Below, one piece after another: positions 23,693 through 38,575 of a stretch of 64,000 nt of DNA. Made by a program: the position numbers and the translations under genes. The notes below the pieces were generated by a model. The model saw nothing but the letters and a program-made list of their open reading frames with translations. It made no database searches and was not told the origin of the DNA. The first letter of the stretch is position 1, and each line of letters begins with the position of its first letter. This DNA is from an uncultured Acidobacteriota bacterium (GTDB lineage: Bacteria; Actinomycetota; Acidimicrobiia; Spongiisociales; ZC4RG35): the NCBI GenBank assembly GCA_963724825.1, contig CAVRWT010000006.1, forward strand, positions 66,295 to 130,294, in the 5' to 3' direction.

Positions 23693-25623
23693 GCGTCGAA
23701 GGAGTCGGTCGGACACGAATCCTCGACGCTGATGTCGGACCCGGCCCGCTCGTAGGTGTAGGCGCAATCTGGGGTGCCGATGGTCACGTCGAGAGTGAAG
23801 GTGTCGGCGTCGTAGTCGTAGCTCCCGGTTCCGTTCAGCACCAGCCCTTCGGTGAGGGCACAGTCGGCAAGCTCGAGCCCGTAACCGGCGTCGGTCACGA
23901 GAAACGTCATGCTGCCTCCGAGATTGCACCCGGCCCCGGTGTCTTCGACTTCGTCCCAGTAGTAATACTCGGGCAGGTAGTTGATCTCCCACTCGACCGC
24001 ATCGAACATGGCCTCGGCGTCCTCGAACTCGTCGATCGACGCCGGGATCAGAGGCACGTAGGGGTCAGCGACGACTCCCTCGCAGGTCGAAACCGACGGC
24101 TTGGTCCCGTCGAGGATGAAGGCGGTGGTGTCTTCATCCGGGCAGGGATTGCCGCGACCGAAGATCACATGCGGCCCCCCGCCCTGAGTCAGCAGGAAGC
24201 CATCATCGAGCCGGGTCCACACCGAGACACCGTTCGAGAAGGGCGTCGCCGGGTCAGCGGTCGCCCCGAGCACCATGGTCGGCGTTCCCTCCGCGGTCAG
24301 AGGCTCGGGCCGTTCGACGTCGGTGTTCCGATCCGGCCAGAAGGCGCAGGGCAGGTCGCCATAGAAGATCGAGCCGAGTCGGAGGTTGTCGAAGTCGGCG
24401 CCGGCTTCGAAGAACGAGTCGACGACGTCCTGCGGGCTGTCGCCCGGGAAGTTGTAGTCCTGGCACTCGACGCCGTAGTAGATGGCGTCGGACCAGGAGG
24501 GGTCTTCGATGATGCTCTCATCCACCGGGTCGGTGCCCAGGTTGGGGTAGAGCAGCCGCAGCAAGGGAATCAGGTCTCCCCGACCCGATTGGGCCGCCAG
24601 GGCCCGGTTGAACATCATCCGATCGGACTCGCCATACATCTGGCCGCTGGCCACGACCTCGAGGTCGGCCAGGCCGAACGATCGCTCCACGGTGGTCCCG
24701 TCGGCGATCGGGAAGTCGGCAGTCAGAGGACCTTCGGTGAGAAGGGCCGCCAGGGTGTCGTAGGCGGTGCCGGGATCTTCGACCATGTCGGCGAGACATG
24801 AATCGTCTGCGTTACACGAGTTGAAGGTCGCCTGAAGCGTCTGCCCGAAGGCTGTCGCCTGCTGCCCGTAGAAGTCGAAGCCATCGAGCGTCAGGTCGAC
24901 GGTTCCGTCGAGAAGCAAGCGATCGAGATGGTCGCCGTGGGCAGCAGCGTAGGTCTGAGCCACTTGCGTTCCGTAGCTCTCCCCGTAGAGGACGAACTGC
25001 TCGAAGCCAAAGGTCTGCCTGAACACTTCGATGTCTTCGACCACCTGCGCCGTGCCGAGGAACGGCAACGAATCCGGGTCGCCCATCTCGGTGACACAGG
25101 CTCCCGCGAAGGACTCCGCGGCGTCGGCCATGGACACCTGGCCGGCCTCGGTCGTCGGATCCGCATCAGCCCGATAGAGGTCGAGCGCGGCGGTCGGGCA
25201 GGTCAGCCCGCCTGACATGCCGACTCCCCTTTGATCGAAGAACACGATGTCGAACTGCTCGGGGATCGATGGATCGAGGGCCGAGGTATATGAGTCGGCA
25301 GACATGATGCCTGCGGTCCCCGGGCCTCCGGTCGCGGTCACGAAGGCACCCTTGCTCACCCCGGTGGCCGGCAGGATCGCAAACGTGACGTCGATGGTGC
25401 GGTCTTCGGAGTCGTCGAAGTGATCGAGCGGCATCTCAATGGTCACGCAGGTGAAGTCCGAATCAGGGCAGGACGTGCCGGCGAGGGCTTCGATGACCTC
25501 TGGAGTGCTGGCAGCCAGCGGCTCTTCGACGTCGGATTGGCTGGTGCAGGCGGCAGCGGCGACAAAGAGCAGCACCAGGAAGGATCGCTTCACCGGCGAG
25601 AGGCTAGGCGGACTCGAAGTCAT
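23689..25623 (-). CDS. Secreted alpha/beta-hydrolase lipoprotein (S33 tripeptidyl-aminopeptidase-like)
   Basis: Lipobox LLFVAAAAC, nucleophile elbow LYGESYGT, 644 aa, several Cys pairs. Its ATG overlaps the ferritin stop (ATGA). Confidence 0.7.
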   Translation of the reverse strand: MTSSPPSLSPVKRSFLVLLFVAAAACTSQSDVEEPLAASTPEVIEALAGTSCPDSDFTCVTIEMPLDHFDDSEDRTIDVTFAILPATGVSKGAFVTATGGPGTAGIMSADSYTSALDPSIPEQFDIVFFDQRGVGMSGGLTCPTAALDLYRADADPTTEAGQVSMADAAESFAGACVTEMGDPDSLPFLGTAQVVEDIEVFRQTFGFEQFVLYGESYGTQVAQTYAAAHGDHLDRLLLDGTVDLTLDGFDFYGQQATAFGQTLQATFNSCNADDSCLADMVEDPGTAYDTLAALLTEGPLTADFPIADGTTVERSFGLADLEVVASGQMYGESDRMMFNRALAAQSGRGDLIPLLRLLYPNLGTDPVDESIIEDPSWSDAIYYGVECQDYNFPGDSPQDVVDSFFEAGADFDNLRLGSIFYGDLPCAFWPDRNTDVERPEPLTAEGTPTMVLGATADPATPFSNGVSVWTRLDDGFLLTQGGGPHVIFGRGNPCPDEDTTAFILDGTKPSVSTCEGVVADPYVPLIPASIDEFEDAEAMFDAVEWEINYLPEYYYWDEVEDTGAGCNLGGSMTFLVTDAGYGLELADCALTEGLVLNGTGSYDYDADTFTLDVTIGTPDCAYTYERAGSDISVEDSCPTDSFDA

Positions 25624-26126
25624 GCCTCCGGGTCGCCCCTGCGGGTCCCTAGCTCATGGTCGAGAAGGAAGATCGCGCCTGAGTCCCCACCGGCTAGCCG
25701 TAGGCGATCGAGGATGGTCTGCACCATGGACTCCTCTTCGTTTTGCTCGGCGATGAAGGTCTGCAGGAAGGGAAAGCTGGCCAGATCACCCCGTTCCGAG
25801 GCGAGGCGATACAGCGAGTGGATGGCCTCGGTAACTGCCTGTTCCTGTTCCAGGGCTGCCTCGAAGGCTTGCTCCGGGCCGGCGAAGTCCGATCGCGGCG
25901 CGGGTACTTCGCCGAGGTGCACCGTGTTCCCTCGATCAACGATGAAGTCGAAGAACCGATCGGCATGGGTTCGTTCCTCGCCGGCCTGGGCTCGCATCCA
26001 GCTGCTCATTCCGACCAGATTCCGGTTGGCGAAGTAGGCAGCCATCTGCAGGTAGGCGGTGGCCGAGGTCAGCTCCATCGTGACCTGTCGGTTGAAGGCT
26101 GCTTCCAGATCTTCGGGCATTCGCAT
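25620..26126 (-). CDS. Ferritin (non-haem, bacterial ferritin family)
   Basis: ORF 25620-26171 shows four-helix ferroxidase residues (ELTSATAYLQMAAYF, EERTHADRF, EQEQAVTEAI). The start MRMPEDLE at 26126 has a GAGGAG 6 nt upstream. Confidence 0.8.
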   Translation of the reverse strand: MRMPEDLEAAFNRQVTMELTSATAYLQMAAYFANRNLVGMSSWMRAQAGEERTHADRFFDFIVDRGNTVHLGEVPAPRSDFAGPEQAFEAALEQEQAVTEAIHSLYRLASERGDLASFPFLQTFIAEQNEEESMVQTILDRLRLAGGDSGAIFLLDHELGTRRGDPEA

Positions 26127-26278
26127 AGAGGCTCCTCGGCTAGTTCGGGCCTCCATCGTATAGGTGCCCACGGAGGCCAGGCTCCGGGTGCCCGATCAGC
26201 ATTGGTAGGGCCACACGGCCTCATATTTTCACTCTCTGTTCACTTATCAACTCGTTCGCCGTCCGTTAGACCAGGGGT

Positions 26279-28111
26279 GTGAAGATTCTCCTGGCTGAGG
26301 ACGACCCCGTCGTCGGCGACGCCTTCGAATCGGCCCTGCGAGCCGGGTATCACTCGGTGCACCGGTCAACGGGTGTAGCCGACACCATTGGCCGTCTGGG
26401 GGACGGTGAGATCGAGGTCGTAATCCTCGACGTCCAATTGACGGATGGCACCGCCTGGGACGTCCTTGATCGGATCCCAAGCCCCCACCCTCCATTTCGT
26501 GTTTCGCTGGTGACAGCGGTGGATGTCGCGCCCCCCCAGCGCTGGGCTCATGTGCCTGTGTTTCGGAAGCCGTTGGATCATCAGGGCCTGATGACTGCAG
26601 TGGCCGAAGCCGTGCCCTACGGACGGTCCGACAGCTCTGAGGCCGGGGAGCCCGGGAGGCAGAACCTGATCGAGCGACTGCTCCTGGCTGACGAGCCCCC
26701 TCTAGTGGTCTCAGTCCCGGTGAGCCTGCTCGTGATCGCCCTCGTGACCCTGATATTGACGCCCATCAGGGAGGAGGCCTTCGGGGCGATCAGCGCTGGT
26801 TACTCCGTGGTCGTCCTTCTGATCGCCGCCTATGCAGGAATCGCGGTAGGCCTGGGTGGGGCGGTGATTGCCTTTCTGGCATACAACTTCTTCATGGTTC
26901 CGCCTCTGTACACGTTCGAGATCGCCTCGGCGCCCCTCGTGCTGAATCTGACCGCATTTCTGGTCGCGGCCGCGGTGGGCGCGATCCTCGTCGGAACGGG
27001 CCGAACTCTCTCCCGGAGGCAGACAAGTGACGCAGCCCTCACCCGCCTTCGCCTCCGCCTCCTCTCCCAGACCATCGATGTGTCGTCCGACCAGTTGATC
27101 GGTGTGATCACCCGCGTCATCAGGGAGGCCCTGCCTGACGAAACGTTGCTGGCCCTGGTGGAACCCGCTCAGGAGGCCCCGCCCTGGGTTCCTGCAGACT
27201 CGGCTGACCTGGCCCGCCGCGAGCGGCGGACCGTTGAAACACGATCAGACAACAGGCCGGTGCTGATACTTCCGGTTGACACCGAAGGCCTTCTCCTCGT
27301 GGCCAGCACGCCAGGCAACCGAATGACAGACCAGGATCGGAGAAGCCTGGGATTTGCATCGACTGAGCTCAGCCGGGTGTCCGAGCAGTTGGATCTGTTG
27401 AGGGCGGCGGAGGGGGCGGAGAAGCTCCAGGCCCGCGACGAAGCCAAGAATGCCCTGTTGGCCGCCGTCAGCCACGACCTGCGCACGCCGCTGGCCTCGA
27501 TGAAGGTGGCTGTGACCACTGTGCTGGAGCCGGACCTCAATCTGTCCGACGCCCAAACCCGTCACCTGTTGGAGACGGTCGATGGCGAGGTAGATCGCTT
27601 GGCAGGCATGATCGACCACCTGCTCGACCTGTCTCGACTCGAGAGCGGAGCCTTCCAACTGAGCCACGACCATGTGGACGTGACGCACCTGGTTCGCGAC
27701 GCCGCCGATCGGGTTCAACTCGCATCGGGCCGGCAAATCGAGGTCACCTCGGCTGGCTCGACGGAGGTAATCGGCGATTCGGTTCGATTGCTGGAGGTCG
27801 TCACCAACCTGATCGACAACGCGGCGCGCTATTCGACTCCGGGCACTCCGATCCTCGTCACCATCCGCTCTGAGGAGGGCTCCGTGCTCGTGGCTGTCAG
27901 CGACGACGGCCCCGGGATGACCCGCGAAGAGCAGGACAAGCTCTTCCGACCGTTCACCCGTGGGCCGAGGTCCGGCAGCGGAAGCGGGCTCGGCCTTGCC
28001 ATCACCCGCTCGATCGTCAGCGCTCACGGCGGGAGCATCGAGGTCGTTTCGAGCCCGGGCACCGGGACAACGATGTCAGTGAGCATCCCAAAGCGGGCCC
28101 TCCATGAGTGA
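26279..28111 (+). CDS. Hybrid sensor kinase: N-terminal receiver + KdpD-type membrane domain (DUF4118-like) + HisKA + HATPase_c
   Basis: The REC domain has EDD, ILDVQLTDG, LVTA and FRKP. Four TM helices include AFLAYNFFMVPPLYTF, typical of the KdpD membrane core. H-box AAVSHDLRTPL; N/G boxes NLIDNAARYS, DDGPGM, GSGLGL. No KdpD N-terminal or Usp domain is present. Confidence 0.8.
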   Translation: MKILLAEDDPVVGDAFESALRAGYHSVHRSTGVADTIGRLGDGEIEVVILDVQLTDGTAWDVLDRIPSPHPPFRVSLVTAVDVAPPQRWAHVPVFRKPLDHQGLMTAVAEAVPYGRSDSSEAGEPGRQNLIERLLLADEPPLVVSVPVSLLVIALVTLILTPIREEAFGAISAGYSVVVLLIAAYAGIAVGLGGAVIAFLAYNFFMVPPLYTFEIASAPLVLNLTAFLVAAAVGAILVGTGRTLSRRQTSDAALTRLRLRLLSQTIDVSSDQLIGVITRVIREALPDETLLALVEPAQEAPPWVPADSADLARRERRTVETRSDNRPVLILPVDTEGLLLVASTPGNRMTDQDRRSLGFASTELSRVSEQLDLLRAAEGAEKLQARDEAKNALLAAVSHDLRTPLASMKVAVTTVLEPDLNLSDAQTRHLLETVDGEVDRLAGMIDHLLDLSRLESGAFQLSHDHVDVTHLVRDAADRVQLASGRQIEVTSAGSTEVIGDSVRLLEVVTNLIDNAARYSTPGTPILVTIRSEEGSVLVAVSDDGPGMTREEQDKLFRPFTRGPRSGSGSGLGLAITRSIVSAHGGSIEVVSSPGTGTTMSVSIPKRALHE

Positions 28112-28472
28112 GACGCGGCGGGTACTGGTCGTGGAAGACGACGTTCGTTTCGGCTCGCTGTTGTGCGAGGTCCTGCAGGCCGCCGGTCACACGGCGGAAC
28201 TTGCCCCCACCAGTGCCGCCGCACTCGCGGCCATCGAGGCCAAGGTGCCCGACGTGTTGTGCGTCGACATCGACCTCCCTGATGGAACGGGGTGGGAGCT
28301 CCTCGATGAGCTGGAGCGGCGCGGCATCGAGCCCGACACCGTCGTCGTGACCTCCGCCAGCATCGGGGCATCGAAGACCAGGCACCGCCCGGGCACTTTC
28401 ATCCTCCCCAAGCCTTTCCCCGTCGACTCGTTGTTGCGTCTCGTCAACGGAGACCAACTACCCGAAATCTGA
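28104..28472 (+). CDS. Single-domain (CheY-like) response regulator
   Basis: 122 aa with VVEDD, CVDIDLPDG, VVTSA and LPKPF, and no output domain. Overlaps the kinase gene by 8 nt. Confidence 0.8.
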   Translation: MSETRRVLVVEDDVRFGSLLCEVLQAAGHTAELAPTSAAALAAIEAKVPDVLCVDIDLPDGTGWELLDELERRGIEPDTVVVTSASIGASKTRHRPGTFILPKPFPVDSLLRLVNGDQLPEI

Positions 28473-28496
28473 TCAAGAAAGAGAAAGAAGCAAGAA

Positions 28497-28580
28497 ATGG
28501 ACGACCTGTTGGTAGCACTCGTGTCCCTGGGAAGCGGACTGGTGTTATGGGGCCTTTATGAAGCTTGCCGGAGAGCCTGA
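28497..28580 (+). CDS. 27-aa hydrophobic peptide ORF, translationally coupled to kdpF (function unknown)
   Basis: My translation: MDDLLVALVSLGSGLVLWGLYEACRRA. A purine-rich stretch (AAGAAAGAGAAAGAAG) precedes the ATG. Its TGA overlaps the kdpF ATG (TGATG). Not in the ORF track (too short). Confidence 0.35.
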   Translation: MDDLLVALVSLGSGLVLWGLYEACRRA

Positions 28581-28669
28581 TGAGAACAGGTGAGTGGCTG
28601 CTTCTGGTAGTGAGTCTCTTGACCGCCATCTTCCTGGTGCTCGCGCTTTGGAAGCCGGAGAAGTTCTGA
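28580..28669 (+). CDS. kdpF: K+-transporting ATPase subunit F
   Basis: My translation: MRTGEWLLLVVSLLTAIFLVLALWKPEKF (29 aa, single TM, typical P-E-x-F end). Its TGA overlaps the kdpA ATG (TGATG). Confidence 0.7.
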   Translation: MRTGEWLLLVVSLLTAIFLVLALWKPEKF

Positions 28670-30378
28670 TGGGCACCGGATTGCTGTTGATGCTGATTTA
28701 TCTGGTAGTGGTCACCGCGGTGGCCATCCCCCTCGGCCGCTATCTGGCGGCCGTCTACAACGGGACCAATCGGCGCAGCCAGCGCTGGCTGGGATGGCTT
28801 GAGCGTGGCATCTATCGCCTATTGCGGGTGGACCCCGAGAGCGAGCACACCTGGAAGGCCTATGCCGGTGGGTTGCTTGCTTTCAACGCGGTTGGATTCG
28901 TCGTCCTCTACATACTGTTGCGGGCTCAGGGGTCTCTACCTCTCAACCCCCAGGGTTTGCCCGGGGTTCCCCCGTGGATCGCTTTCAACACTGCTGTCAG
29001 TTTCGTGACCAACACCAACTGGCAGGCCTACGGCGGAGAATCGACCATGTCGTATCTGTCGCAGATGGCGGGACTCAGCGTGCAGAACTTCGTGTCGGCA
29101 GCTGTGGGTATGGCCGCTGCGGCCGCTCTCATCAGAGGGATTGCCCGACGCAGCACCGATCGAATCGGCAACTTCTGGGTCGACCTGGTTCGCTCCAACC
29201 TCTACGTCCTGTTGCCACTGGCGACTGTTATTGCGCTCTTCTTCGTCAGCCAGGGCATGGTCCAGAAGTTCGATCCCTACGTCGAAGCGACGACCGTAGA
29301 GGGTGCCAGTCAGGTGATACCCCTCGGCCCGGCCGCAAGCCAGATCTCGATCAAGGACATCGGCACCAATGGCGGCGGGTTCTTCAACGCCAACTCGGCA
29401 CACCCGTTCGAAAACCCAACTCCGCTGTCCAACGCGGTGATCGTGGTCGCCATGCTCGCCATCTCAGGAGGCTTCGTATTCGCATACGGTCGAATGGTCG
29501 GCCGGCCCAAGGAGGGCTATGCGATCTATGCCGCGATGGCGCTCATCTTCGTCGTTATGACTGTCGGCGCTGTGGTCAATGAAACCGGGAGCGCAGGCGC
29601 AGCCGAAGGCTCCGGTGCCAACGTCGCCGCCTCGATCGATTCCCCGGGCGGGAACATGGAGGGCAAAGAAGTCAGATTTGGCCCGGCGGAGAGCGCGATC
29701 TATGCCTCGGTGACCACCAGCCTCTCCAATGGTTCGGTGAACTCTTCTCACGACTCGTTCACACCGATGGGTGGCGCCGTTCCCATGGTCAACATGATGC
29801 TTGGCGAGGTGGTGTTCGGGGGGGTCGGCGTCGGCCTGAATGGGATGTTGGTCTTCGTCATCCTCACTGTCTTCATAGCTGGTCTCATGGTGGGTCGCAC
29901 CCCGGAGTGGCTGGGCAAGAAGATCGAGGGCGGAGACGTCAAGCTGGCGGTGGTGGCGACCATTGCCCCCCAAATGGCGGTTCTGATCCTGGCCGGCATC
30001 GCCGCCGGCACCTCGATCGGGAGGGCTGGGATCTTCAACCCCGTGCCCCACGGATGGTCGGAAATCCTGTACGGGTACACCTCCGGGGGCAACAACAACG
30101 GTTCTGCCTTCGGTGGCCTTGGATCGGGCCAGACCTTCTACGCGATCACCGTCGGATTGGCGATGATCGTGGGGCGCTTCTTCACGCTGATCCCGGTCCT
30201 CGCCCTGGCCGGGCGCTTGGCCGGGCGCAAGGCCAGTGAGAGCGTCACCGAGGCCACGTTCCGCACCAATGGCCCCCTCTTTGTTGTGCTTCTCCTGGCG
30301 ATCGTCGTGATTGTTGGAGCGCTCACCTTCCTACCCGCTCTTGCGCTCGGTCCGATCGTGGAAGCGCTGAGCATTTGA
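28669..30378 (+). CDS. kdpA: K+-transporting ATPase subunit A
   Basis: ORF 28594-30378 from MGTGLLLMLIYLVV. It contains KdpA selectivity-filter-like segments (NTNWQAYGGE, GTNGGGF, NNGSAFGG). Confidence 0.95.
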   Translation: MGTGLLLMLIYLVVVTAVAIPLGRYLAAVYNGTNRRSQRWLGWLERGIYRLLRVDPESEHTWKAYAGGLLAFNAVGFVVLYILLRAQGSLPLNPQGLPGVPPWIAFNTAVSFVTNTNWQAYGGESTMSYLSQMAGLSVQNFVSAAVGMAAAAALIRGIARRSTDRIGNFWVDLVRSNLYVLLPLATVIALFFVSQGMVQKFDPYVEATTVEGASQVIPLGPAASQISIKDIGTNGGGFFNANSAHPFENPTPLSNAVIVVAMLAISGGFVFAYGRMVGRPKEGYAIYAAMALIFVVMTVGAVVNETGSAGAAEGSGANVAASIDSPGGNMEGKEVRFGPAESAIYASVTTSLSNGSVNSSHDSFTPMGGAVPMVNMMLGEVVFGGVGVGLNGMLVFVILTVFIAGLMVGRTPEWLGKKIEGGDVKLAVVATIAPQMAVLILAGIAAGTSIGRAGIFNPVPHGWSEILYGYTSGGNNNGSAFGGLGSGQTFYAITVGLAMIVGRFFTLIPVLALAGRLAGRKASESVTEATFRTNGPLFVVLLLAIVVIVGALTFLPALALGPIVEALSI

Positions 30379-30414
30379 AGTTCCCTGAATTCGTGAAATC
30401 GGAGTGTGTAAGAC

Positions 30415-32493
30415 ATGAACGGTGAATCCCCCTCGATACCCAAGATCCCTGGTCGGTCCAGACGCGACCTGAGCAACCCCGGTGCGTTCCAAAGGGATTT
30501 GGTTCGCGACGCGGTTGGCGCGTCCTTCGCAAAACTGAACCCGACCACTCTCTACAAGAACCCGGTCATGTTCACGGTGGAGATCGGGGCGGTGATAAGC
30601 AGCATCATGGCCATTGTCCGCGGCACAGATGGAGATCCGGCCACTGGGGTCGGATTCGCGATCTGGATCTCGGCGTGGTTGTGGTTCACGGTGCTATTCG
30701 CCAATTTCGCCGAGGCACTGGCCGAGGCCCGTGGAAAGGCTCAAGCGGAGAGCCTGCGGGCGACCCGGGCATCGACTTCGGCGCGCCGAATCAAGAACGG
30801 CAGCTTCGAAATGGTCGACTCCACTGCCTTGCGGGCCGGCGACCTGGTCCGGGTGGAATCGGGTGAGCTCATTCCCAGCGATGGCGAAGTGGTCGAAGGC
30901 GTCGCCTTTGTCAACGAGGCCGCCATCACCGGAGAGTCGGCTCCCGTGCTCAAGGAGCCGGGCACGGACATCCGCTCGTCAGTGACCGGGGGGACAACAC
31001 TGACCTCGGACTGGCTTGTGATCAAGATCACGGCCAACCCTGGTGAGACCTTCCTCGACCGGATGATCGCGTTGGTCGAAGGCGCCAATCGCCAGAAGAC
31101 ACCAAATGAGATCGCGCTTTCCCTTCTGCTGACGGGTCTGACGCTGGTGTTCCTGGTGGTATGTGTTGCCCTGTTCCCGGTCACAACGTTGGTGACGCCG
31201 GAGAGCCCGGCCGATCCGGTCGTTCTGGTCGCCCTATTCGTGACATTGATCCCGACCACTATCGGTGGCCTGCTGTCTGCCATCGGCATTGCCGGTATGG
31301 ACCGGGTCACCAGATTCAACGTCATGGCGACCTCGGGAAAGGCGGTCGAAGCGGCCGGTGATTGCGACACATTGCTCCTCGACAAGACCGGCACCATCAC
31401 TTTTGGAAACCGGCTCGCCTCTGCCTTCTGGCCTCTGTCAGGAGTGACTGAGCAGGAGCTGGCGCAAGCCGCGGCTCGTACCTCATATGCCGACGAGACC
31501 CCGGAAGGCCGTTCGATTGTCACCCTTGCCCAGGAGAAGGGTGTCTTTGGCGAAGCGGAGCCTGGAGACGAATTCGTCGAATTCTCAGCCGCGACACGCC
31601 TGTCCGGGGTCCGTTATGCGGGTGGCGAGACGTGGAAAGGCGCGGGCACCGCGATTCGCGGCCTGGTTCCGGACGCCCCGCCCGAGTTGGAGGACCTTGC
31701 GGAGCGGGTTGCCGGCCGGGGTGCCACCCCATTGTCGGTCGCTGCCAATGGGAGGGCGCTCGGGGTGATCGAGCTCTCCGACACGGTCAAACCCGGTTTG
31801 TCGGAGCGCTTCAATCTCCTCCGCCGTCTGGGAATCCGGACCGTCATGATCACAGGCGACAACCGGCTCACCGCCTCGGTGATCGCCGAGCAAGCGGGTG
31901 TTGACGACTTTCTGGCCGAGGCAACGCCGGAGGACAAGCTCGATCTGATTCGCAAGGAACAGACCGGGGGACGTTTGGTGGCAATGACCGGTGACGGCAC
32001 AAACGATGCTCCTGCCCTGGCTCAGGCAGATGTGGGCCTCGCCATGAACTCGGGCACGGCGGCCGCCAAGGAGGCGGCCAACATGGTCGATCTCGACTCT
32101 GATCCCACGAAGATCATCGAGGTAGTCCGCATCGGCAAGGAATTGCTGATGACGAGGGGCGCCGTCACCACGTTCTCGATCGCCAATGACGTGGCTAAGT
32201 ACTTCGCCATCATCCCGGCGATGTTCGCTGCAGTCCTGCCTGCTCTCGACTCGCTCAACGTCATGAGGCTGGGAACACCGCAATCCGCGATCGTGTCGGC
32301 GGTGATATTCAACGCATTGATCATCGTGGCGCTGGTGCCGCTGTCCCTGAGGGGGGTGCGAACCAAGGCAAGAGGAGCCAGTTCGATCCTCTATCGCAAC
32401 TTGCTCATCTATGGAGTGGGCGGCCTGATTGTTCCCTTCATCGGGATCAAGGCCATCGACATGGTTCTGAATACGACTGAGTGGTTCTCATGA
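30415..32493 (+). CDS. kdpB: K+-transporting ATPase subunit B (P-type ATPase)
   Basis: [11 protein letters not shown] phosphorylation motif, [22 protein letters not shown] hinge; 692 aa. Confidence 0.95.
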
Positions 32494-33047
32494 AACAAGT
32501 GATACGTGCCTTTGTGGCTCTGATGGTCCTCACCGTCCTGCTCGGGTTCGGCTACCCCCTCCTGGTGACAGGAATCGCTGGAGTGTTCTGGGCCGACGAA
32601 GCCGGCGGCTCTTTGATCGAGCGCGACGGTGCGGTTGTCGGGAGTGAGCTGTTGGCACAGCCCTTCACCAGCGATTCCTACTTTTGGCCGCGACCGTCGG
32701 CCTCCGGGTACAACGCCAATCCGGAGCTCGATCCGAACACTCGCTCGCTCTCATATCCGTCGAATCTGGGGCCGCAGAATCCGGACTTGAAGATGGCGAT
32801 CGTCGACCTGGTCATCGCCTATGGGGACGGAGTCCCGGTTGACCTGGTTACTGGCTCCGGGTCGGCCCTCGATCCCCACATCTCAGTTGCTGCGGCACAA
32901 TGGCAAGCCCACAGGGTCGCTGCGACCCGTGGTCTCGACGAGGCTGAAGTGCTTGCTCTGATCGACCAACATATCGAGTCATGGATCGGGCGCCGTTACG
33001 TGAACGTGCTGATGTTGAATCTCGCTCTGGATCAGACCTCCGGTTGA
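32490..33047 (+). CDS. kdpC: K+-transporting ATPase subunit C
   Basis: MKQVIRAF...GYPLLVTG N-terminal TM helix, and [10 protein letters not shown], typical of KdpC. The ATG overlaps the kdpB TGA (ATGA). Confidence 0.9.
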
Positions 33048-34196
33048 GCGCCGACCTCGAGCGAGATCAGAAGGTGGCGCGGGCTTTGGCCCGTGCCGCG
33101 GGTGACGCGGTCGACGGGCGGGGGTGGCTCACCGTTTATCTCGGCTTTGCTCCGGGGGTGGGCAAGACCTACGCGATGCTCCGAGCGGTCCACGAGCTCA
33201 AGAAGGAAGGCAAAGATGTGGTCGTTGGGTTCGTCGAGACGCACGGTCGGACCGACACTGCGGCCTTGCTCGAGGGTCTCGAGGTCCTGCCGCGAAAGGT
33301 AGTGAATCACCAGGGAGTTCCTGTTGAGGAGCTCGACCTGGAAGCAATCCTCGCCCGCGCTCCAGCGATCTGCGCCATCGACGAGCTGGCCCATACCAAT
33401 GCCCCGGGGAGCCCACGTGAGAAGCGGTATGAGGACGTCAATCTCGTTCTCGACGCGGGCATCGACGTCCTGACAACTCTCAACATCCAGCACCTCGAGA
33501 GCCTCAACGACGTCGTCGAATCCATCGCCGGCGTCAAGGTGAGGGAGCGAATCCCCGACGAGGTGCTCGATGATGCCGACGAGTTCATCCTGGTCGATGT
33601 CTCCGCAGAGGAGCTACGGGATCGGCTCCAACAGGGCAAGGTGTACCCATCGGAGTCGGCAAGGCGGGCCCTCGAGCATTTTTTCCGGCCGGGCAACCTC
33701 AATGCACTTCGTGAGCTCGCGCTGATGCGCACTGCCCGCAACGTCGAGCGAGAGCTCGGTGCATACATGTCGGCGCATGGAATCGAATCGCCCTGGCGAT
33801 CGACGGAACGGATCATGGCCTGTGTCGACGAGACCGAAACCGGGGAGACCGTGGTGCGTCGCGGATTCCGCCTCGCCAATGCATCGCGTGGCGAGTTCTT
33901 CGTGCTCACCGTCGGTCTTGACCGGGTTAGCCCCAGTCAAGTTGGCCCGATCAAGCGGACTCTTGCTATAGCCCGCGACCTGGGAGCGACGGTGGTCACG
34001 CGCGACGGAGGGGGGCGCGAGGTGGCGAGCGAGATCATCGCCGCTGCCCGAGAGCTCGAAGGCCACGCTGGTGATCATGGGCCCATCTCATCGGACTCTC
34101 TGGGAGAAGCTCCGGGGCGGTGACATCATCGACCACGTGGTGTCGGGCCTCCGCGACGTAGATGTGCTTGTCATCGGTCTGGCCGAGATCGAATAG
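33044..34196 (+). CDS. Stand-alone KdpD sensor half (KdpD N-terminal domain + Usp domain, no membrane or kinase part); 1-nt insertion at about 34061
   Basis: LTVYLGFAPGVGKTYAML (Walker-A-like), VVGFVETHGR, IDELAHTN and NIQHLESLND are the hallmark KdpD N-domain blocks, followed by a Usp-like segment. After AARELE the frame fails and the +1 frame gives ATLVIMGPSHRTLWEKLRGGDIIDHVVSGLRDVDVLVIGLAEIE, ending at the stop 34194-34196. TTG 33044 overlaps the kdpC TGA. Confidence 0.8.
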
Positions 34197-34222
34197 CCGA
34201 CTCTTGGCAGAATGGCAGCCTC

Positions 34223-34888
34223 TTGCCGACCATCCTCATCGCCGACGACGATCCCGGGCTGCTCGACACAGTGGCCATGCTGCTCGAGGCTTCTGGCTAC
34301 GAGGTGCACACCGCGGGCTCTGCGACAGAAGCACTCGACGGTTGGCCTCGCGTTCACCCCGACCTGGTGATCGTCGACCTCCATATGCCTGGTGGGGGCA
34401 TGGAGCTGGTGACCGCCATCAGCAGTCACACCTCGACTCCGGTGATCGTCCTCTCGGGCGACGTCGACGAATCGGTGAAGGTGGCCGCTCTCGATGCCGG
34501 AGCCGAGGACTATGTGACCAAGCCGTTCTCGGCAGCTGAGCTGTTGGCACGAGTCAGGGTGGCGTTGCGTCGCACTGAGCCTGGTACCAAAGCGATCACG
34601 GTTGGTGAACTGACCCTGTCAGAGCCGGAGCTGACGGCGTCCGCGGGCAAAGGGTCTGTGAAGCTGACCCCGACCGAATTCGATCTGCTCAGGGCAATGG
34701 CGCTTGCCGACAGTTTTGTGGCGACCAATGACCTGCTCAACCAGGTATGGGGCCCCGCATATCGAACCGAACAAGAGTATGTCCGTGTCTACGTCCGACG
34801 TCTGCGAGGCAAGCTCGATTCGCTCGGCCTCACCAACGCCATCGAGTCACGACCGGGGCTCGGATATCGCCTTGTGGGCAGCGAATAG
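34223..34888 (+). CDS. kdpE: OmpR-family response regulator (KdpE-like)
   Basis: REC domain (ADDD, IVDLHMPGG, VLSG, TKPF) plus a winged-helix output domain (LTPTEFDLLRAM, YVRVYVRRLRGKL, GLGYRL). It is the last gene of the kdp operon. Confidence 0.8.
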   Translation: MPTILIADDDPGLLDTVAMLLEASGYEVHTAGSATEALDGWPRVHPDLVIVDLHMPGGGMELVTAISSHTSTPVIVLSGDVDESVKVAALDAGAEDYVTKPFSAAELLARVRVALRRTEPGTKAITVGELTLSEPELTASAGKGSVKLTPTEFDLLRAMALADSFVATNDLLNQVWGPAYRTEQEYVRVYVRRLRGKLDSLGLTNAIESRPGLGYRLVGSE

Positions 34889-34891
34889 CTG

Positions 34892-37282
34892 TCAGCTATC
34901 AGTCGGACTGCTCTGGTCCGGTGAGGGAGAGGAGGTGGGTTCGGGATCCGACGAGGTCGACTCCACTGCTTCACCTTTCCTGGCGCGGCGCCAGTCGGGG
35001 TCGAGGTGGAACGGGACACTGGTCACCGCGATCCCGACCTCCGCGGCGAGGATGCCCTTGATGGCGAGCCCGGTTTGGTTGTGGAGGATCTGGGTGATTC
35101 GCCCGGGCACCACGAACTCGGGGATGACCGCGCAGATGAGCGTTCCCGGGAGGGCTCTTCGACGCCGCTCACGGAGATAGTTGACGAGTGGGTCGACGAT
35201 TTCCCGAAATGGGCTGGCAACGATCTCGAGGGGGAAGTCATACCCCGACGCCTTCCAGTGATGCTCAACACGCTCTCGTTGTGCGCTGTCGACATCGATG
35301 TGGATGGCGGTCGTCGGAGTTCCGAGACCTTGGGCATAGGTGAGAGCCTCCCGGATCGGTCTCGTCATGTCCGAGATCAGCACTACTTGCTCGACGTGGC
35401 TGATCGACATACGGGGCAGGCGGCTGCGTCGGGATCGCTTGAGCACGTTCAGGTCGGTTACCACCACCTGGGGCTCGAACAGAAGGCGCGCCTTCACGGC
35501 AAGGCTGTGTGGATGAGAGAATGGGCTGAGGATCGAGGACCACGTTCGAAGCTGTTCTCCGAGGACGACGGTGATGGCCGTATCGGGATGGGTGTCTCTT
35601 TCCTGGCGGACACGCTCCACGATCCTGCGTGAGATCGATTCGTGCTCACCTGGAAGGATCTCGAGGGGAAACGTGGGATGCACCCGATCCCAGGTGTAGA
35701 CGAGGTCGTCCGAACCCTGCTCCTCGGCATGAACACAAGTGATCGCCTCGGCGTTGAGGAGGGACACGTATTGGATAGCCCGATCGGTTCGCTCATCCGG
35801 GTGGGCCACCAACACCAGGAATCTCACTGGTCGGGGATGAGCATCGACGCGGATGTGCCTCAGTTGGGCGGCAACTCCGAGGTAGTGGCGGCGGATCGCA
35901 AGCATCAAGGACACCAGCAGCGGGATGAGAATGATCACGATCCAGGCACCGTGGGAGAACTTGACCGTGGCAACCACGATCAGGACCACCCCAGTGGTGA
36001 CCGCCCCGACGCCATTGATGACGACCGACCACCTCCAATTCGGCTCCCTGGTCTTGAGCCAATGCTTGACCATGCCGGTTTGGCTCAGGGTGAACGAAGT
36101 GAACACACCGACCACGTAGAGCTGGATGAGACGGCTCACCTCGGCCTGAAAGATCAGCAACAAGACCGAGGCGACGAATGCGAGGGTGATGACCCCGTTC
36201 GAGAAGACCAGTCGATCGCCTCGGTTCAGGTACTGACGCGGCATCAGCCTCGATCGCGCCAGGATTGCGGAGAGTCTCGGGAAGTCCTGGTAGGCAGTGT
36301 TCGCCGCCAGGATCAAGATGGCGGCGGTGAAGACCTGGAGAAGGTAGAACCCGATTCCGCCCTCGAACGTCGCCCTCCCGATCTGTGAGATGACGGTCCC
36401 GTACTCGTCGATGGTGTCCTCGGAGATGCGAACGTCGAACAACTGCGCAAGGGTCGAGATACCGAGGAACATGGTTATCGAGATCGCTCCCATGATCGCG
36501 AGCGTCCTGGCCGCGTTCTGGGCCTTTGGCGCCTTGAACGCCTGCACCCCATTGGCCACCGCCTCGACTCCGGTCAGCGCAGTCGAACCGGAGGCAAAAG
36601 CCCGGAGTATCAGAAACAGGCTGACGACGCCCAGCTCGGCCTCCAGTTCGATTCCGGACGAAACGGCCGTTGGGCATACGCCATCGAGACATTTGACGAA
36701 TCCCATCACGAGCATGATCGCCACCATCACGATGAACAGATAGGTGGGGGCCGCAAAGATCCGAGATGCCTCCCTGACCCCCCTCAGGTTGGTAACCGTG
36801 AGCAACACCACGAATCCGAGCGACAGCTCAACCCGCCACGAAATGAGACCGGGGGCTGCGGAGGTGATGGCCGCGACTCCTGCCGCCACGGAAACCGAAA
36901 CTGTGAGCACGTAGTCGATGAGGAGTGCCGCCGCGGCAACCGCCCCGGTCCGGATCCCCAGATTCTCACTGGCGACGATGAAGGCTCCTCCACCATCGGG
37001 GTATGCCCTGATCGTCTGTCGGTAGGACACGATGACGATCAGCAACAGCGTGGCAACAGCCAGCGAAACAGGGGTCAGATAGGCATATGCCGCGGTGCCG
37101 GCGAGGGCGAGCACGAGCATTGCCTCCTCGGTGGCATAGGCCACGGAGGACAGCGGGTCGGATGCGAAGACGGGAAGCGCGAACCGCTTGGGTAGGAGTT
37201 GGTGATCCTCCTCACTGGTGGCGAGCGGTCTCCCGAACAGCCTGCGCTTGGTCCAGAAACCGCGGACTGGCCTGGTGCTCAC
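34892..37282 (-). CDS. APC-superfamily permease with a large (~300 aa) C-terminal cytoplasmic domain
   Basis: 796 aa. The N-terminal ~480 aa form a 12-TM APC-like core (FASDPLSSVAYATEE, GGGAFIV). The C-terminal soluble region is of unknown function. Confidence 0.7.
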   Translation of the reverse strand: MSTRPVRGFWTKRRLFGRPLATSEEDHQLLPKRFALPVFASDPLSSVAYATEEAMLVLALAGTAAYAYLTPVSLAVATLLLIVIVSYRQTIRAYPDGGGAFIVASENLGIRTGAVAAAALLIDYVLTVSVSVAAGVAAITSAAPGLISWRVELSLGFVVLLTVTNLRGVREASRIFAAPTYLFIVMVAIMLVMGFVKCLDGVCPTAVSSGIELEAELGVVSLFLILRAFASGSTALTGVEAVANGVQAFKAPKAQNAARTLAIMGAISITMFLGISTLAQLFDVRISEDTIDEYGTVISQIGRATFEGGIGFYLLQVFTAAILILAANTAYQDFPRLSAILARSRLMPRQYLNRGDRLVFSNGVITLAFVASVLLLIFQAEVSRLIQLYVVGVFTSFTLSQTGMVKHWLKTREPNWRWSVVINGVGAVTTGVVLIVVATVKFSHGAWIVIILIPLLVSLMLAIRRHYLGVAAQLRHIRVDAHPRPVRFLVLVAHPDERTDRAIQYVSLLNAEAITCVHAEEQGSDDLVYTWDRVHPTFPLEILPGEHESISRRIVERVRQERDTHPDTAITVVLGEQLRTWSSILSPFSHPHSLAVKARLLFEPQVVVTDLNVLKRSRRSRLPRMSISHVEQVVLISDMTRPIREALTYAQGLGTPTTAIHIDVDSAQRERVEHHWKASGYDFPLEIVASPFREIVDPLVNYLRERRRRALPGTLICAVIPEFVVPGRITQILHNQTGLAIKGILAAEVGIAVTSVPFHLDPDWRRARKGEAVESTSSDPEPTSSPSPDQSSPTDS

Positions 37283-37615: not shown

Positions 37616-38575
37616 ATGACCAACGCCATCCTCGCCGAGGGTCTTCGCAAGGAATATGGAGAGGTCGTCGCGCTCGACGGCCTCGACCTGGCCGTGCCTG
37701 AAGGTTCGGTCATGTGCCTGCTCGGCCCCAACGGCGCCGGCAAGACGACGACCGTTCGCATCCTCACCACGCTCCTCGAGGCCACCAGCGGCAAAGCCAC
37801 AGTGGCAGGGCTCGATGTCCACGCTGACGCCGCCAAGCTCCGCGAGCGGATCGGACTGTCCGGTCAATACGCCGCGGTCGACGAGAACTTCACCGGTTTT
37901 GAGAATCTGGAGATGGTGGGAAGGCTCTATCACCTGGGCCGGGCTCGAAGTCGGGAGCGCGCCCTCGACCTGCTTGACCGTTTCGACCTAGACGAAGCCG
38001 CCGACCGTCAGGCCAAGACCTACTCGGGCGGAATGCGCCGCCGCCTCGACCTGGCCGCGGCGCTGGTGGCCCGTCCCGAGGTGATCTTCCTCGATGAGCC
38101 AACCACTGGCCTCGACCCCCGAAGCCGGCTCAGCCTGTGGGAGGTCATCGAGGAGTTGGTCAAAGAAGGTGCGACTCTTCTCCTGACCACCCACTTCCTG
38201 GACGAGGCCGATCGTCTCGCCGATTCGATCGCAGTGATCGATCACGGGCGGGTGATCGCGTTAGGCACCGCCGAGGAGCTGAAACAGCAAGTAGGCGGGG
38301 AGAGGATCGAGCTCACCGTGAAGAGCGCAGCCGACCTGGAGGCGGCCCGGGAAGTGTTGTCTTCGGTCGGGGTTGGCCAGGTCACGGTCGACGAGGATGC
38401 CCGGGATCTGGCGGTGGCTGTGGGTGTCGGCGGCGACGCGCTGATTGAGACGGTTCGAGGGCTCGACGCCCGGGGGATCAGCCCGCTGGATCTGGCCCTA
38501 CGCCGGCCCACCCTGGATGACGTGTTCCTGACTCTGACGGGTCACATGGCCGAGGAGGAGGTGGTGGACGCGTGA
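37616..38575 (+). CDS. ABC transporter ATP-binding protein (DrrA/daunorubicin-resistance type)
   Basis: GPNGAGKTT, YSGGMRRRLDLA, VIFLDEPTTGLD, and a DrrA-like C-terminal domain. Confidence 0.85.
   Translation: MTNAILAEGLRKEYGEVVALDGLDLAVPEGSVMCLLGPNGAGKTTTVRILTTLLEATSGKATVAGLDVHADAAKLRERIGLSGQYAAVDENFTGFENLEMVGRLYHLGRARSRERALDLLDRFDLDEAADRQAKTYSGGMRRRLDLAAALVARPEVIFLDEPTTGLDPRSRLSLWEVIEELVKEGATLLLTTHFLDEADRLADSIAVIDHGRVIALGTAEELKQQVGGERIELTVKSAADLEAAREVLSSVGVGQVTVDEDARDLAVAVGVGGDALIETVRGLDARGISPLDLALRRPTLDDVFLTLTGHMAEEEVVDA

Follow-up and report, generated by a model that had tools for sequence, protein, structure and literature searches.

A predicted split KdpD system with receiver domains in the kdp cluster of an uncultured Acidimicrobiia bacterium

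Known KdpD systems and the locus studied

The N-terminal domain of KdpD (KdpD-N) is an atypical serine kinase which phosphorylates Ser162 of KdpB and inhibits the Kdp pump at high potassium, and KdpD residues 1-230 suffice for this KdpB S162 phosphorylation (Silberberg et al., 2024). Here, we analyze a DNA stretch of 64,000 nucleotides (nt; hereafter, the window) from an uncultured Acidimicrobiia bacterium (contig CAVRWT010000006.1, positions 66,295 to 130,294), in which the gene directly following kdpC (33044-34196 of the window) encodes KdpD-N and a domain of the universal stress protein (Usp) type as a separate soluble chain, called short KdpD below. The membrane and kinase half of KdpD is encoded by another gene of the same cluster, and it bears a predicted receiver domain at its N-terminus. 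The cluster as a whole is best read as a split KdpD system with a predicted serine kinase, a predicted histidine kinase and receivers, in which a single-base break in the short kdpD gene is a probable artefact; we assign this reading a probability of about 0.75.

Short and split forms of KdpD are well documented. In a census of 5495 species, 4036 have full-length KdpD, 922 have KdpD/Usp-only proteins and 140 have split KdpD, with 10 split systems among 1511 Actinomycetota (Silberberg et al., 2024). The view in the initial annotation that such proteins are reported mainly from cyanobacteria and Deinococcus is out of date, given these numbers, their spread over many phyla and the existence of a curated NCBI model. 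In split systems, the serine-kinase chain remains downstream of the pump genes (Silberberg et al., 2024). In Deinococcus radiodurans, kdpD-N follows kdpC, and the kinase and the regulator are located in a divergent operon (DR_B0088 with DR_B0082/DR_B0081; PMC5716572); the split KdpDs of Alicyclobacillus acidocaldarius and Anabaena are similar to this (Silberberg et al., 2024). Biochemical tests have been made with a single short KdpD, that of Deinococcus geothermalis (Q1J2K3), which phosphorylates E. coli KdpB and is stimulated by cyclic di-AMP (c-di-AMP) (Silberberg et al., 2024). The layout with a stand-alone KdpD-N/Usp protein is thus already known, and the mechanism of the class was published in 2024. 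None of the 28 architecture classes in Supplementary Data 2 of that census includes a receiver (Silberberg et al., 2024).

The locus in the window resembles the known split systems in that the gene immediately after kdpC encodes a soluble KdpD-N/Usp chain, the membrane kinase is a separate protein, an OmpR-type regulator is present and the break lies between the Usp domain and the first membrane helix. The predicted serine-kinase chain is located downstream of the pump genes, and the regulator is KdpE-like. Unlike in the known split systems, an additional receiver is present at the N-terminus of the kinase half, the next gene encodes a receiver only, and kdpE follows short kdpD rather than lying beside the kinase gene. 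Unlike in D. radiodurans, the kinase gene is upstream and on the same strand, apparently within the pump-gene unit and not in a divergent operon. D. geothermalis is listed without KdpE, whereas a KdpE-like gene is present in the window. As in full-length E. coli KdpD, all the domains are represented, GAF by a GAF-like domain, and kdpC, kdpD(N) and kdpE occur in this order with overlapping stop and start codons; in contrast to E. coli KdpD, the domains are distributed over two polypeptides, and a receiver occupies the place where KdpD-N/Usp would join the membrane domain. The presence of two polypeptides indicates that the serine kinase is uncoupled from the potassium-sensing membrane/GAF-like part.

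The soluble KdpD-N/Usp chain

The initial annotation took the gene to be coupled to kdpC, to encode only KdpD-N and a Usp-like domain and to have its membrane/kinase counterpart upstream, and its coordinates, gene order and motifs all hold. The TTG start codon (33044-33046) overlaps the kdpC stop codon TGA (33045-33047) within the sequence TTGA. In a Pfam scan, the product matches KdpD (PF02702, residues 26-234, E 6.2e-91) and Usp (PF00582, residues 255-369, E 1.6e-10), with transmembrane (TM), HisKA and HATPase matches absent. All four motifs are found in the product, i.e., GFAPGVGKTYAML at residues 34-46, ETHGR at 65-69, IDELAHTN at 112-119 and NIQHLESLND at 147-156. The matching half is a separate gene 4.9 kb upstream with DUF4118, HisKA and HATPase_c domains. 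A profile built from 30 family sequences retrieves from the PDB the KdpD N-domain structure 2R8R (E 5.5e-97) and the Staphylococcus aureus KdpD-USP structure 7JI4 (E 2.7e-15), unlike the Usp part used as a single sequence, with which the PDB search yields nothing useful. The stand-alone KdpD-N/Usp protein is a real observation, far beyond chance.

Residues 22-381 of short KdpD align to residues 18-376 of E. coli KdpD with 44% identity, and residues 150-606 of the kinase half align colinearly to E. coli KdpD residues 402-882 with 26% identity, which places the break in the linker between the Usp domain and the first membrane helix (E. coli 376/402). As the kdpE-like gene begins 26 nt past the stop codon of short kdpD, extension of this reading frame into a kinase region is impossible. 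The best 120 database homologues are all short forms of 339-450 amino acids (aa) or shorter fragments, and the relatives L001, L002, L003 and L090, whose short KdpDs are 69-97% identical to that of the window, have the same kdp gene order. The top NCBIfam model for the protein is NF038185, 'KdpD-like non-kinase potassium sensor' (E 1.3e-115, 353 of 373 model positions), and yet the score, which is below the cut-off, places the window protein outside the founding group of that model.

The residues of the serine kinase are retained in short KdpD: the Walker A motif GVGKT at 38-42 (K41/T42), the Walker B residues D113/E114 and R194. Among the 112 short homologues compared, K41, E114 and R194 are kept in all, and T42 and D113 in 111. 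E. coli W39 is replaced by Tyr43, and the residue at this site in the 112 homologues is Tyr in 96, Phe in 9, Trp in 5 and His in 2. The predicted target is also retained, as KdpB contains the TGES motif (aligned motif AITGESAPV) with E174/S175, corresponding to E. coli E161/S162, as well as the catalytic D323. By these residues, the protein has all the features of the KdpD-N atypical serine kinase class, namely Walker A/B, the aromatic/Arg clamp and the Glu-Ser target in KdpB. The D. geothermalis protein has the same two-domain architecture, a similar length and the same Walker A/B and Arg residues.

As a homologue of E. coli KdpD(1-230) and of the D. geothermalis protein, the short chain would be an atypical Walker A/B serine kinase. 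It would phosphorylate Ser175 in the TGES motif of KdpB, thereby turning off the existing pumps when potassium is replete. The gene lies directly 3' of kdpC and its start codon overlaps the kdpC stop codon, so that synthesis of the pump would always bring with it synthesis of the inhibitor. Short KdpD would act as a post-translational off-switch that is co-produced with the pump through translational coupling. The initial annotation called this protein the sensor half of KdpD, a label in which the identification of the KdpD N-terminal part stands, whereas the published function of this part as a serine kinase acting on KdpB was overlooked.

A different role would be that of a mainly non-catalytic sensor or scaffold, which docks on the kinase half, or on KdpE and DNA, and rebuilds a full KdpD in trans, with nucleotide binding tuning the histidine-kinase output. 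The name of the NCBI family points in this direction, and a breakpoint exactly at the domain linker fits halves that still cooperate. In earlier work with E. coli and Anabaena, the N-terminal domain reportedly acts in trans on truncated KdpD and stabilizes KdpE-DNA binding. This role is nonetheless rather unlikely to be the principal one: D113, E114 and R194, which are needed for serine phosphorylation and not for simple nucleotide binding, are present in 111, 112 and 112 of the 112 short homologues, respectively, the serine and the helper glutamate of KdpB are retained, and phosphorylation of KdpB is established for the D. geothermalis short KdpD (Silberberg et al., 2024). The scaffold role and the serine-kinase role are compatible, not mutually exclusive.

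The short kdpD gene in the window is interrupted. The reading frame from 33044 ends at a stop codon at 34123, and the conserved C-terminus ATLVIMGPSHRTLWEKLRGGDII runs in the next frame to the TAG at 34194-34196. The frame is broken as suspected in the initial annotation, which placed a 1-nt indel at about 34061; alignment with relatives locates a single extra base in GAGCTCGAAGGCC, which is read as C34057 against L003 and as G34058 against L090. Relatives have GAGCT(G/C)AAGGCC at the same site, and in a DNA alignment the extra base is missing in four of them. Removal of this base gives a protein of 383 aa, equal in length to intact relatives at 87-95% identity, and the 43 codons 3' of the break are 88% identical to L001 with no further damage.

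Frameshifts at other positions occur in the sister assemblies, which are European Nucleotide Archive (ENA) entries ERZ250394xx/ERZ250395xx with contigs named contig_N. Near-identical proteins from other assemblies (P0042 and P0043) are cut at different sites; in L090, a 97%-identical relative, kdpB, kdpC, short kdpD and kdpE are all fragmented by frameshifts, and L002 and L003 have a fragmented kinase gene. Since four relatives are free of the extra base and the sister assemblies are frameshifted elsewhere, the break is most likely an assembly error, with a pattern as of random long-read indels. Frameshift-chopped kdpA, kdpB, kdpC, kdpD and kinase genes in the sister assemblies span L090 5328-9809, L002 3231-5072, L003 3-1470 and L087 5361-9658, which makes protein-length statistics from those assemblies unreliable.

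If the frameshift were real, the gene would be a fresh pseudogene or would encode a 360-aa product with KdpD-N intact and the Usp domain lacking its last 47 residues, i.e., an unregulated or unstable inhibitor. The inserted base is located outside any long homopolymer, no other frame change occurs across the ~20 kb that is syntenic with L001, and the accompanying gene call of the window corresponds to the truncated form (P0005, 349 aa). We consider a real frameshift improbable, however, in view of the four relatives without the extra base, the out-of-frame tail that is still 88% identical to the L001 protein and undamaged, and the random frameshifts in kdpB, kdpC, short kdpD and kdpE of near-identical sister assemblies. 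Even then, the product would retain residues 1-234 undamaged, and in E. coli the 1-230 part of KdpD is by itself active as a serine kinase.

Programmed frameshifting at 34057 was also considered and is rejected, since in relatives one uninterrupted frame encodes the same C-terminus.

The signal that the Usp domain receives is a separate question. In S. aureus KdpD, c-di-AMP binding depends on the motif (A/G/C)-x-S-x-S-x2-N...(Y/F), and the S244D substitution abolishes c-di-AMP binding with about half of AMP binding kept (Dutta et al., 2021; PMC8214093). The Usp domain of the window protein has a fold homologous to that of S. aureus KdpD-USP (7JI4; PMC8214093) and retains the first glycine of the beta4-alpha4 loop (G346), a conserved residue kept in 104 of the 112 short homologues. 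In a profile alignment to 7JI4, however, A242, S244, S246 and N249 correspond to C260, D262, T264 and G267, and Y271 corresponds to Thr, so that one of the five motif positions is conserved and the domain does not belong to the c-di-AMP-binding KdpD-USP domains by this motif. The Mycobacterium tuberculosis domain has an equal count, and its c-di-AMP binding amounts to ~0.7% of that of the S. aureus domain (Dutta et al., 2021; PMC8214093).

Asp at the position of S. aureus Ser244 is found in the window protein and in 102 of the 112 short homologues. The short homologues also have a Gly-Ser/Asp pair 13-14 residues past the loop glycine, a part resemblance to ATP-type Usp proteins. The c-di-AMP-responsive D. 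geothermalis protein is likewise without the S. aureus motif, having Ala, and not Asp, at the key position; for this reason, absence of the motif is not decisive. On the basis of these alignments, c-di-AMP control of the window protein is not supported, and an adenine mononucleotide would be a reasonable alternative ligand for its Usp domain. The conserved Asp, at the very position where a Ser-to-Asp change abolishes c-di-AMP binding in S. aureus, raises the testable question of which signal controls the serine kinase of short KdpDs in these phyla.

The kinase half and the receiver family

The kinase half consists of a receiver domain (residues 1-114), a linker, a four-helix DUF4118 membrane domain (~142-250), an alpha/beta domain (270-343), a dimerization and histidine phosphotransfer (DHp) domain with H399, and a catalytic ATP-binding (CA) domain. 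H399 is located within SHDLRTPL and is invariant in 47 sequences. With its KdpD-type membrane domain and the DHp/CA region including the catalytic His, this protein has the composition of the second chain of a split KdpD, and its best homologues beyond its own clade are C-terminal halves of full-length KdpDs or split DUF4118-GAF-kinase proteins. An AlphaFold2 (AF2) model shows four membrane helices, a compact helix/strand domain at 270-343 with a predicted local distance difference test (pLDDT) score of ~80-88, a long DHp hairpin and the CA domain. GAF matches are present in more distant split homologues; as no Pfam GAF model matches the small domain at 270-343, it is termed GAF-like only. The membrane half presumably phosphorylates the KdpE-like regulator, which would induce the operon under potassium limitation.

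The N-terminal domain of the kinase half is a receiver as judged from its phospho-acceptor residues and its predicted fold. Among 30 clade members, E7, D8, D9, D51 and K97 do not vary, and residue 79, T79 in the window protein, is either Thr or Ser. The AF2 model of the domain has a pLDDT of 84, and its best 50 Foldseek matches in the PDB are all receiver domains, with TM-scores of 0.56-0.77 normalized by target length. As the receiver precedes the membrane domain and nothing follows the CA domain, the protein is not a classical hybrid histidine kinase; no histidine phosphotransfer (HPt) domain is found by Pfam among the locus proteins scanned.

A diverged Usp domain, which has a similar alpha/beta fold and occupies the same place in full-length KdpD, was considered for this N-terminal domain and is rejected by the pattern of acidic pair, Asp, Thr and Lys and by the structural matches, all 50 of which are receivers. 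Proteins of similar length with ~160 residues before DUF4118 carry a Usp domain, not a receiver, at this place and form a separate group.

The receiver-DUF4118 fusion is rare. When residues 1-250 are searched against 1.84 billion 50%-identity representatives, the fusion is found in one full-length cluster and in fragments, and all other matches contain the receiver or the membrane domain alone, never both. The named members of this clade are all proteins of Acidimicrobiia metagenome-assembled genomes (MAGs), annotated as 'ATP-binding protein' or 'universal stress protein' at NCBI. A scan of a genome collection with kinase peptide patterns kept 80 loci, which are generic histidine kinases at 27-36% identity and include no clade member. 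Description of a receiver-bearing KdpD kinase half was not found in the searchable literature, and such a protein is in none of the 28 census classes; the suggestion in the initial annotation that a kinase half with a receiver is undescribed is thereby borne out as far as these sources reach.

The kinase gene is followed by a gene for a stand-alone receiver, which the initial annotation did not mention, as was also the case for kdpF and a 27-aa open reading frame (ORF) between them. The stand-alone receiver has the residues D12/D13, D55, T83 and K103, and the protein is conserved in L001, L002, L003 and L090. Its identity to the receiver-only genes of two more distant kdp loci, L085 and L087, is 33-38%, and the family shares the signature LD(I/V)(D/N)LPDGTGW ... 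KPFP with a shortened alpha4-beta5 region. In each of the split-KdpD loci that were examined, a receiver-only gene is located 5' of kdpF or kdpA, and in most of them immediately so. No description of this receiver family was found in the searchable literature. The receiver fused to the kinase half resembles the stand-alone family more closely than it does the receiver of KdpE, suggesting duplication followed by fusion as the simplest history.

It is highly improbable that the receiver-bearing kinase and the stand-alone receiver constitute another pathway merely adjoining kdp, with the true KdpE partner encoded elsewhere: generic kinase models do outscore the KdpD model in NCBIfam for the DHp/CA region and NCBI labels clade members only 'ATP-binding protein', but the DUF4118 membrane domain is colinear with E. 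coli KdpD 402-882, the closest homologues beyond the clade are KdpDs, genes that overlap or nearly abut keep a fixed order in relatives whose short KdpD is as little as 69% identical, and DUF4118-GAF kinase, KdpE and receiver genes share the kdp neighbourhood in other phyla.

Several points weigh against the split-KdpD reading as a whole. For short KdpD, the NF038185 (KdpD_non_kinase) score of 386.6 is under the curated cut-off of 550. For the kinase half, the Response_reg score of 23.9 bits is under the Pfam gathering cut-off of 30.2, and no Pfam GAF match is found in residues 250-385. The c-di-AMP motif is absent in the Usp domain, no c-di-AMP (ydaO/kimA-type) or other riboswitch is detected with Rfam gathering thresholds over the whole window, so that riboswitch control of the kdp operon is unsupported, and a crude motif search in six frames of the window reveals no diadenylate-cyclase domain. 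The break in short kdpD is the sole frame change in ~20 kb of synteny with L001, and the assembly is not obviously noisy. Finally, the serine-kinase activity, its KdpB target and phosphotransfer from the kinase to KdpE are all predicted from homology.

The function of the receivers is a matter of speculation: they might serve as a phosphate sink, as a feedback element or as a second input. The fused and the stand-alone receivers might be alternative phosphoryl acceptors, forming a sink or feedback branch that tunes the output of the system. A wider proposal can be offered tentatively, as a possibility that we hold with less than even confidence. In split-KdpD systems of Actinomycetota-like and Chloroflexota-like bacteria, a third component would be this receiver family encoded 5' of kdpF, which in one Acidimicrobiia clade would have become fused to the kinase in place of KdpD-N/Usp and would act as a phosphate sink or in feedback, while the Asp-containing Usp domain would read an adenine mononucleotide rather than c-di-AMP. 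If this is true, the Kdp pump would be subject to a further, undescribed level of regulation, made up of the receivers and the adenine-mononucleotide Usp domain.

The kdp cluster, its surroundings and implications

The kdp cluster probably constitutes one tightly packed, co-transcribed unit. Between 26279 and 34888, the genes are arranged on the + strand in the order kinase half, receiver, 27-aa ORF, kdpF, kdpA, kdpB, kdpC, KdpD-N/Usp and kdpE, and stop/start overlaps (TGATG, ATGA and TTGA) occur at most junctions (Table 1). The start of kdpA is set by sequence and by homologues of 568-569 aa, the mechanical ORF from 28594 being overlong. The start of kdpC is probably the ATG at 32490, which overlaps the kdpB stop codon within ATGA; KdpC of L001 has 185 aa. 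The kdpE-like protein is 36% identical to E. coli KdpE over its full length, and a gene in the same position is kept in L001-L003; as the NCBIfam KdpE model gives 137 bits with a cut-off of 325, it is called KdpE-like by context.

Table 1. Coordinates of the kdp cluster and neighbouring features in the window, and of receiver-only genes in other kdp loci
Feature	Coordinates	Strand	Evidence and remarks
Kinase half of split KdpD, 610 aa	26279-28111	+	Pfam DUF4118, HisKA, HATPase_c, weak Response_reg
Stand-alone receiver, 122 aa	28104-28472	+	Pfam Response_reg E 5.7e-13; start overlaps kinase stop by 8 nt
Hydrophobic ORF, 27 aa, conserved	28497-28580	+	Stop overlaps kdpF ATG (TGATG)
kdpF, 29 aa	28580-28669	+	Pfam Potass_KdpF 26.3 bits (cut-off 21.2); tblastn match to L001 KdpF
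kdpA	28669-30378	+	Pfam KdpA E 3.5e-227; ATG overlaps kdpF stop
kdpB, P-type ATPase subunit	30415-32493	+	59% identity to E. coli KdpB
kdpC	32490-33047	+	Pfam KdpC E 1.1e-55
KdpD-N + Usp (short KdpD), soluble, 383 aa after removal of the extra base	33044-34196	+	Pfam PF02702, PF00582
kdpE-like OmpR-family response regulator, 221 aa	34223-34888	+	Pfam Response_reg and Trans_reg_C; D52, winged helix
Direct repeat TTCAC-N6-TTCAC (candidate site)	26228-26243	+	In the gap before the kinase gene
Permease, 796 aa	34892-37282	-	AA_permease_2 E 1.5e-26, weak K_trans match; convergent with kdpE
ABC-transporter ATPase (DrrA-like)	37616-38572	+	Sub-threshold Pfam KdpD match, 21 bits
Receiver-only gene, locus L085	1487-1900		
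Receiver-only gene, locus L087	634-1041		
Receiver-only gene, locus L088	376-783		
Receiver-only gene, locus L089	1-337		
Receiver-only gene, P0090 locus			

The only sizeable intergenic gap of the cluster is the 107-nt region between a divergent ferritin gene and the kinase gene, and it contains the direct repeat TTCAC-N6-TTCAC. This is the only exact copy in the window, and the repeat is identical in L001 and nearly so in L002. A spacing of 11 bp is typical of sites for OmpR/PhoB-family regulators, and the repeat is a candidate OmpR-type (KdpE) binding site. If it binds KdpE, the whole cluster would be a single autoregulated unit. A scan of 25500-35300 for sigma-70 promoters and terminators shows no promoter-like site, and terminator-like sites are at chance level; this fits one long unit and proves nothing in a high-GC actinobacterium.

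The peptide of the 27-aa ORF, MDDLLVALVSLGSGLVLWGLYEACRRA, is also encoded in L001 and L003, and a diverged version, VEDLLVLATAALSGVVLWLVVILCRRA, in L002. It has no Pfam match; an additional small membrane subunit and a leader peptide of the Kdp operon are both conceivable roles. At the P0090 locus, an ORF of 32 aa is located immediately 5' of kdpF.

Downstream of the cluster, the 796-aa permease has no NCBIfam match and may be a KimA/Kup-like potassium importer co-localized with Kdp. AA_permease_2 genes of a similar kind adjoin the kdp loci L085 and P0090. The sub-threshold KdpD match of the DrrA-like ATPase most likely reflects a shared P-loop only and not a second KdpD.

In Supplementary Data 1 of the census, Acidimicrobium ferrooxidans (C7LZE9), the only Acidimicrobiia species noticed there, is entered as 'KdpD domain, Usp domain', followed by 'Yes' and 'No' in the next columns, presumed to be the serine- and histidine-kinase calls (Silberberg et al., 2024).

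With the stand-alone KdpD-N/Usp protein encoded after kdpC, a further lineage joins a class that has already been catalogued and explained mechanistically; by itself this changes little. A modest variation on this class, not described before, is formed by the receiver-bearing kinase half and the stand-alone receiver that recurs in such loci. Judging from this locus, receiver domains associated with split systems appear to have escaped the surveys of KdpD architecture. As NCBI labels the receiver-bearing kinase half only as 'ATP-binding protein', species of this kind may be entered in surveys as having no KdpD histidine kinase; should the kinase half of A. ferrooxidans also bear a receiver under that generic label, the census may have missed its kinase.

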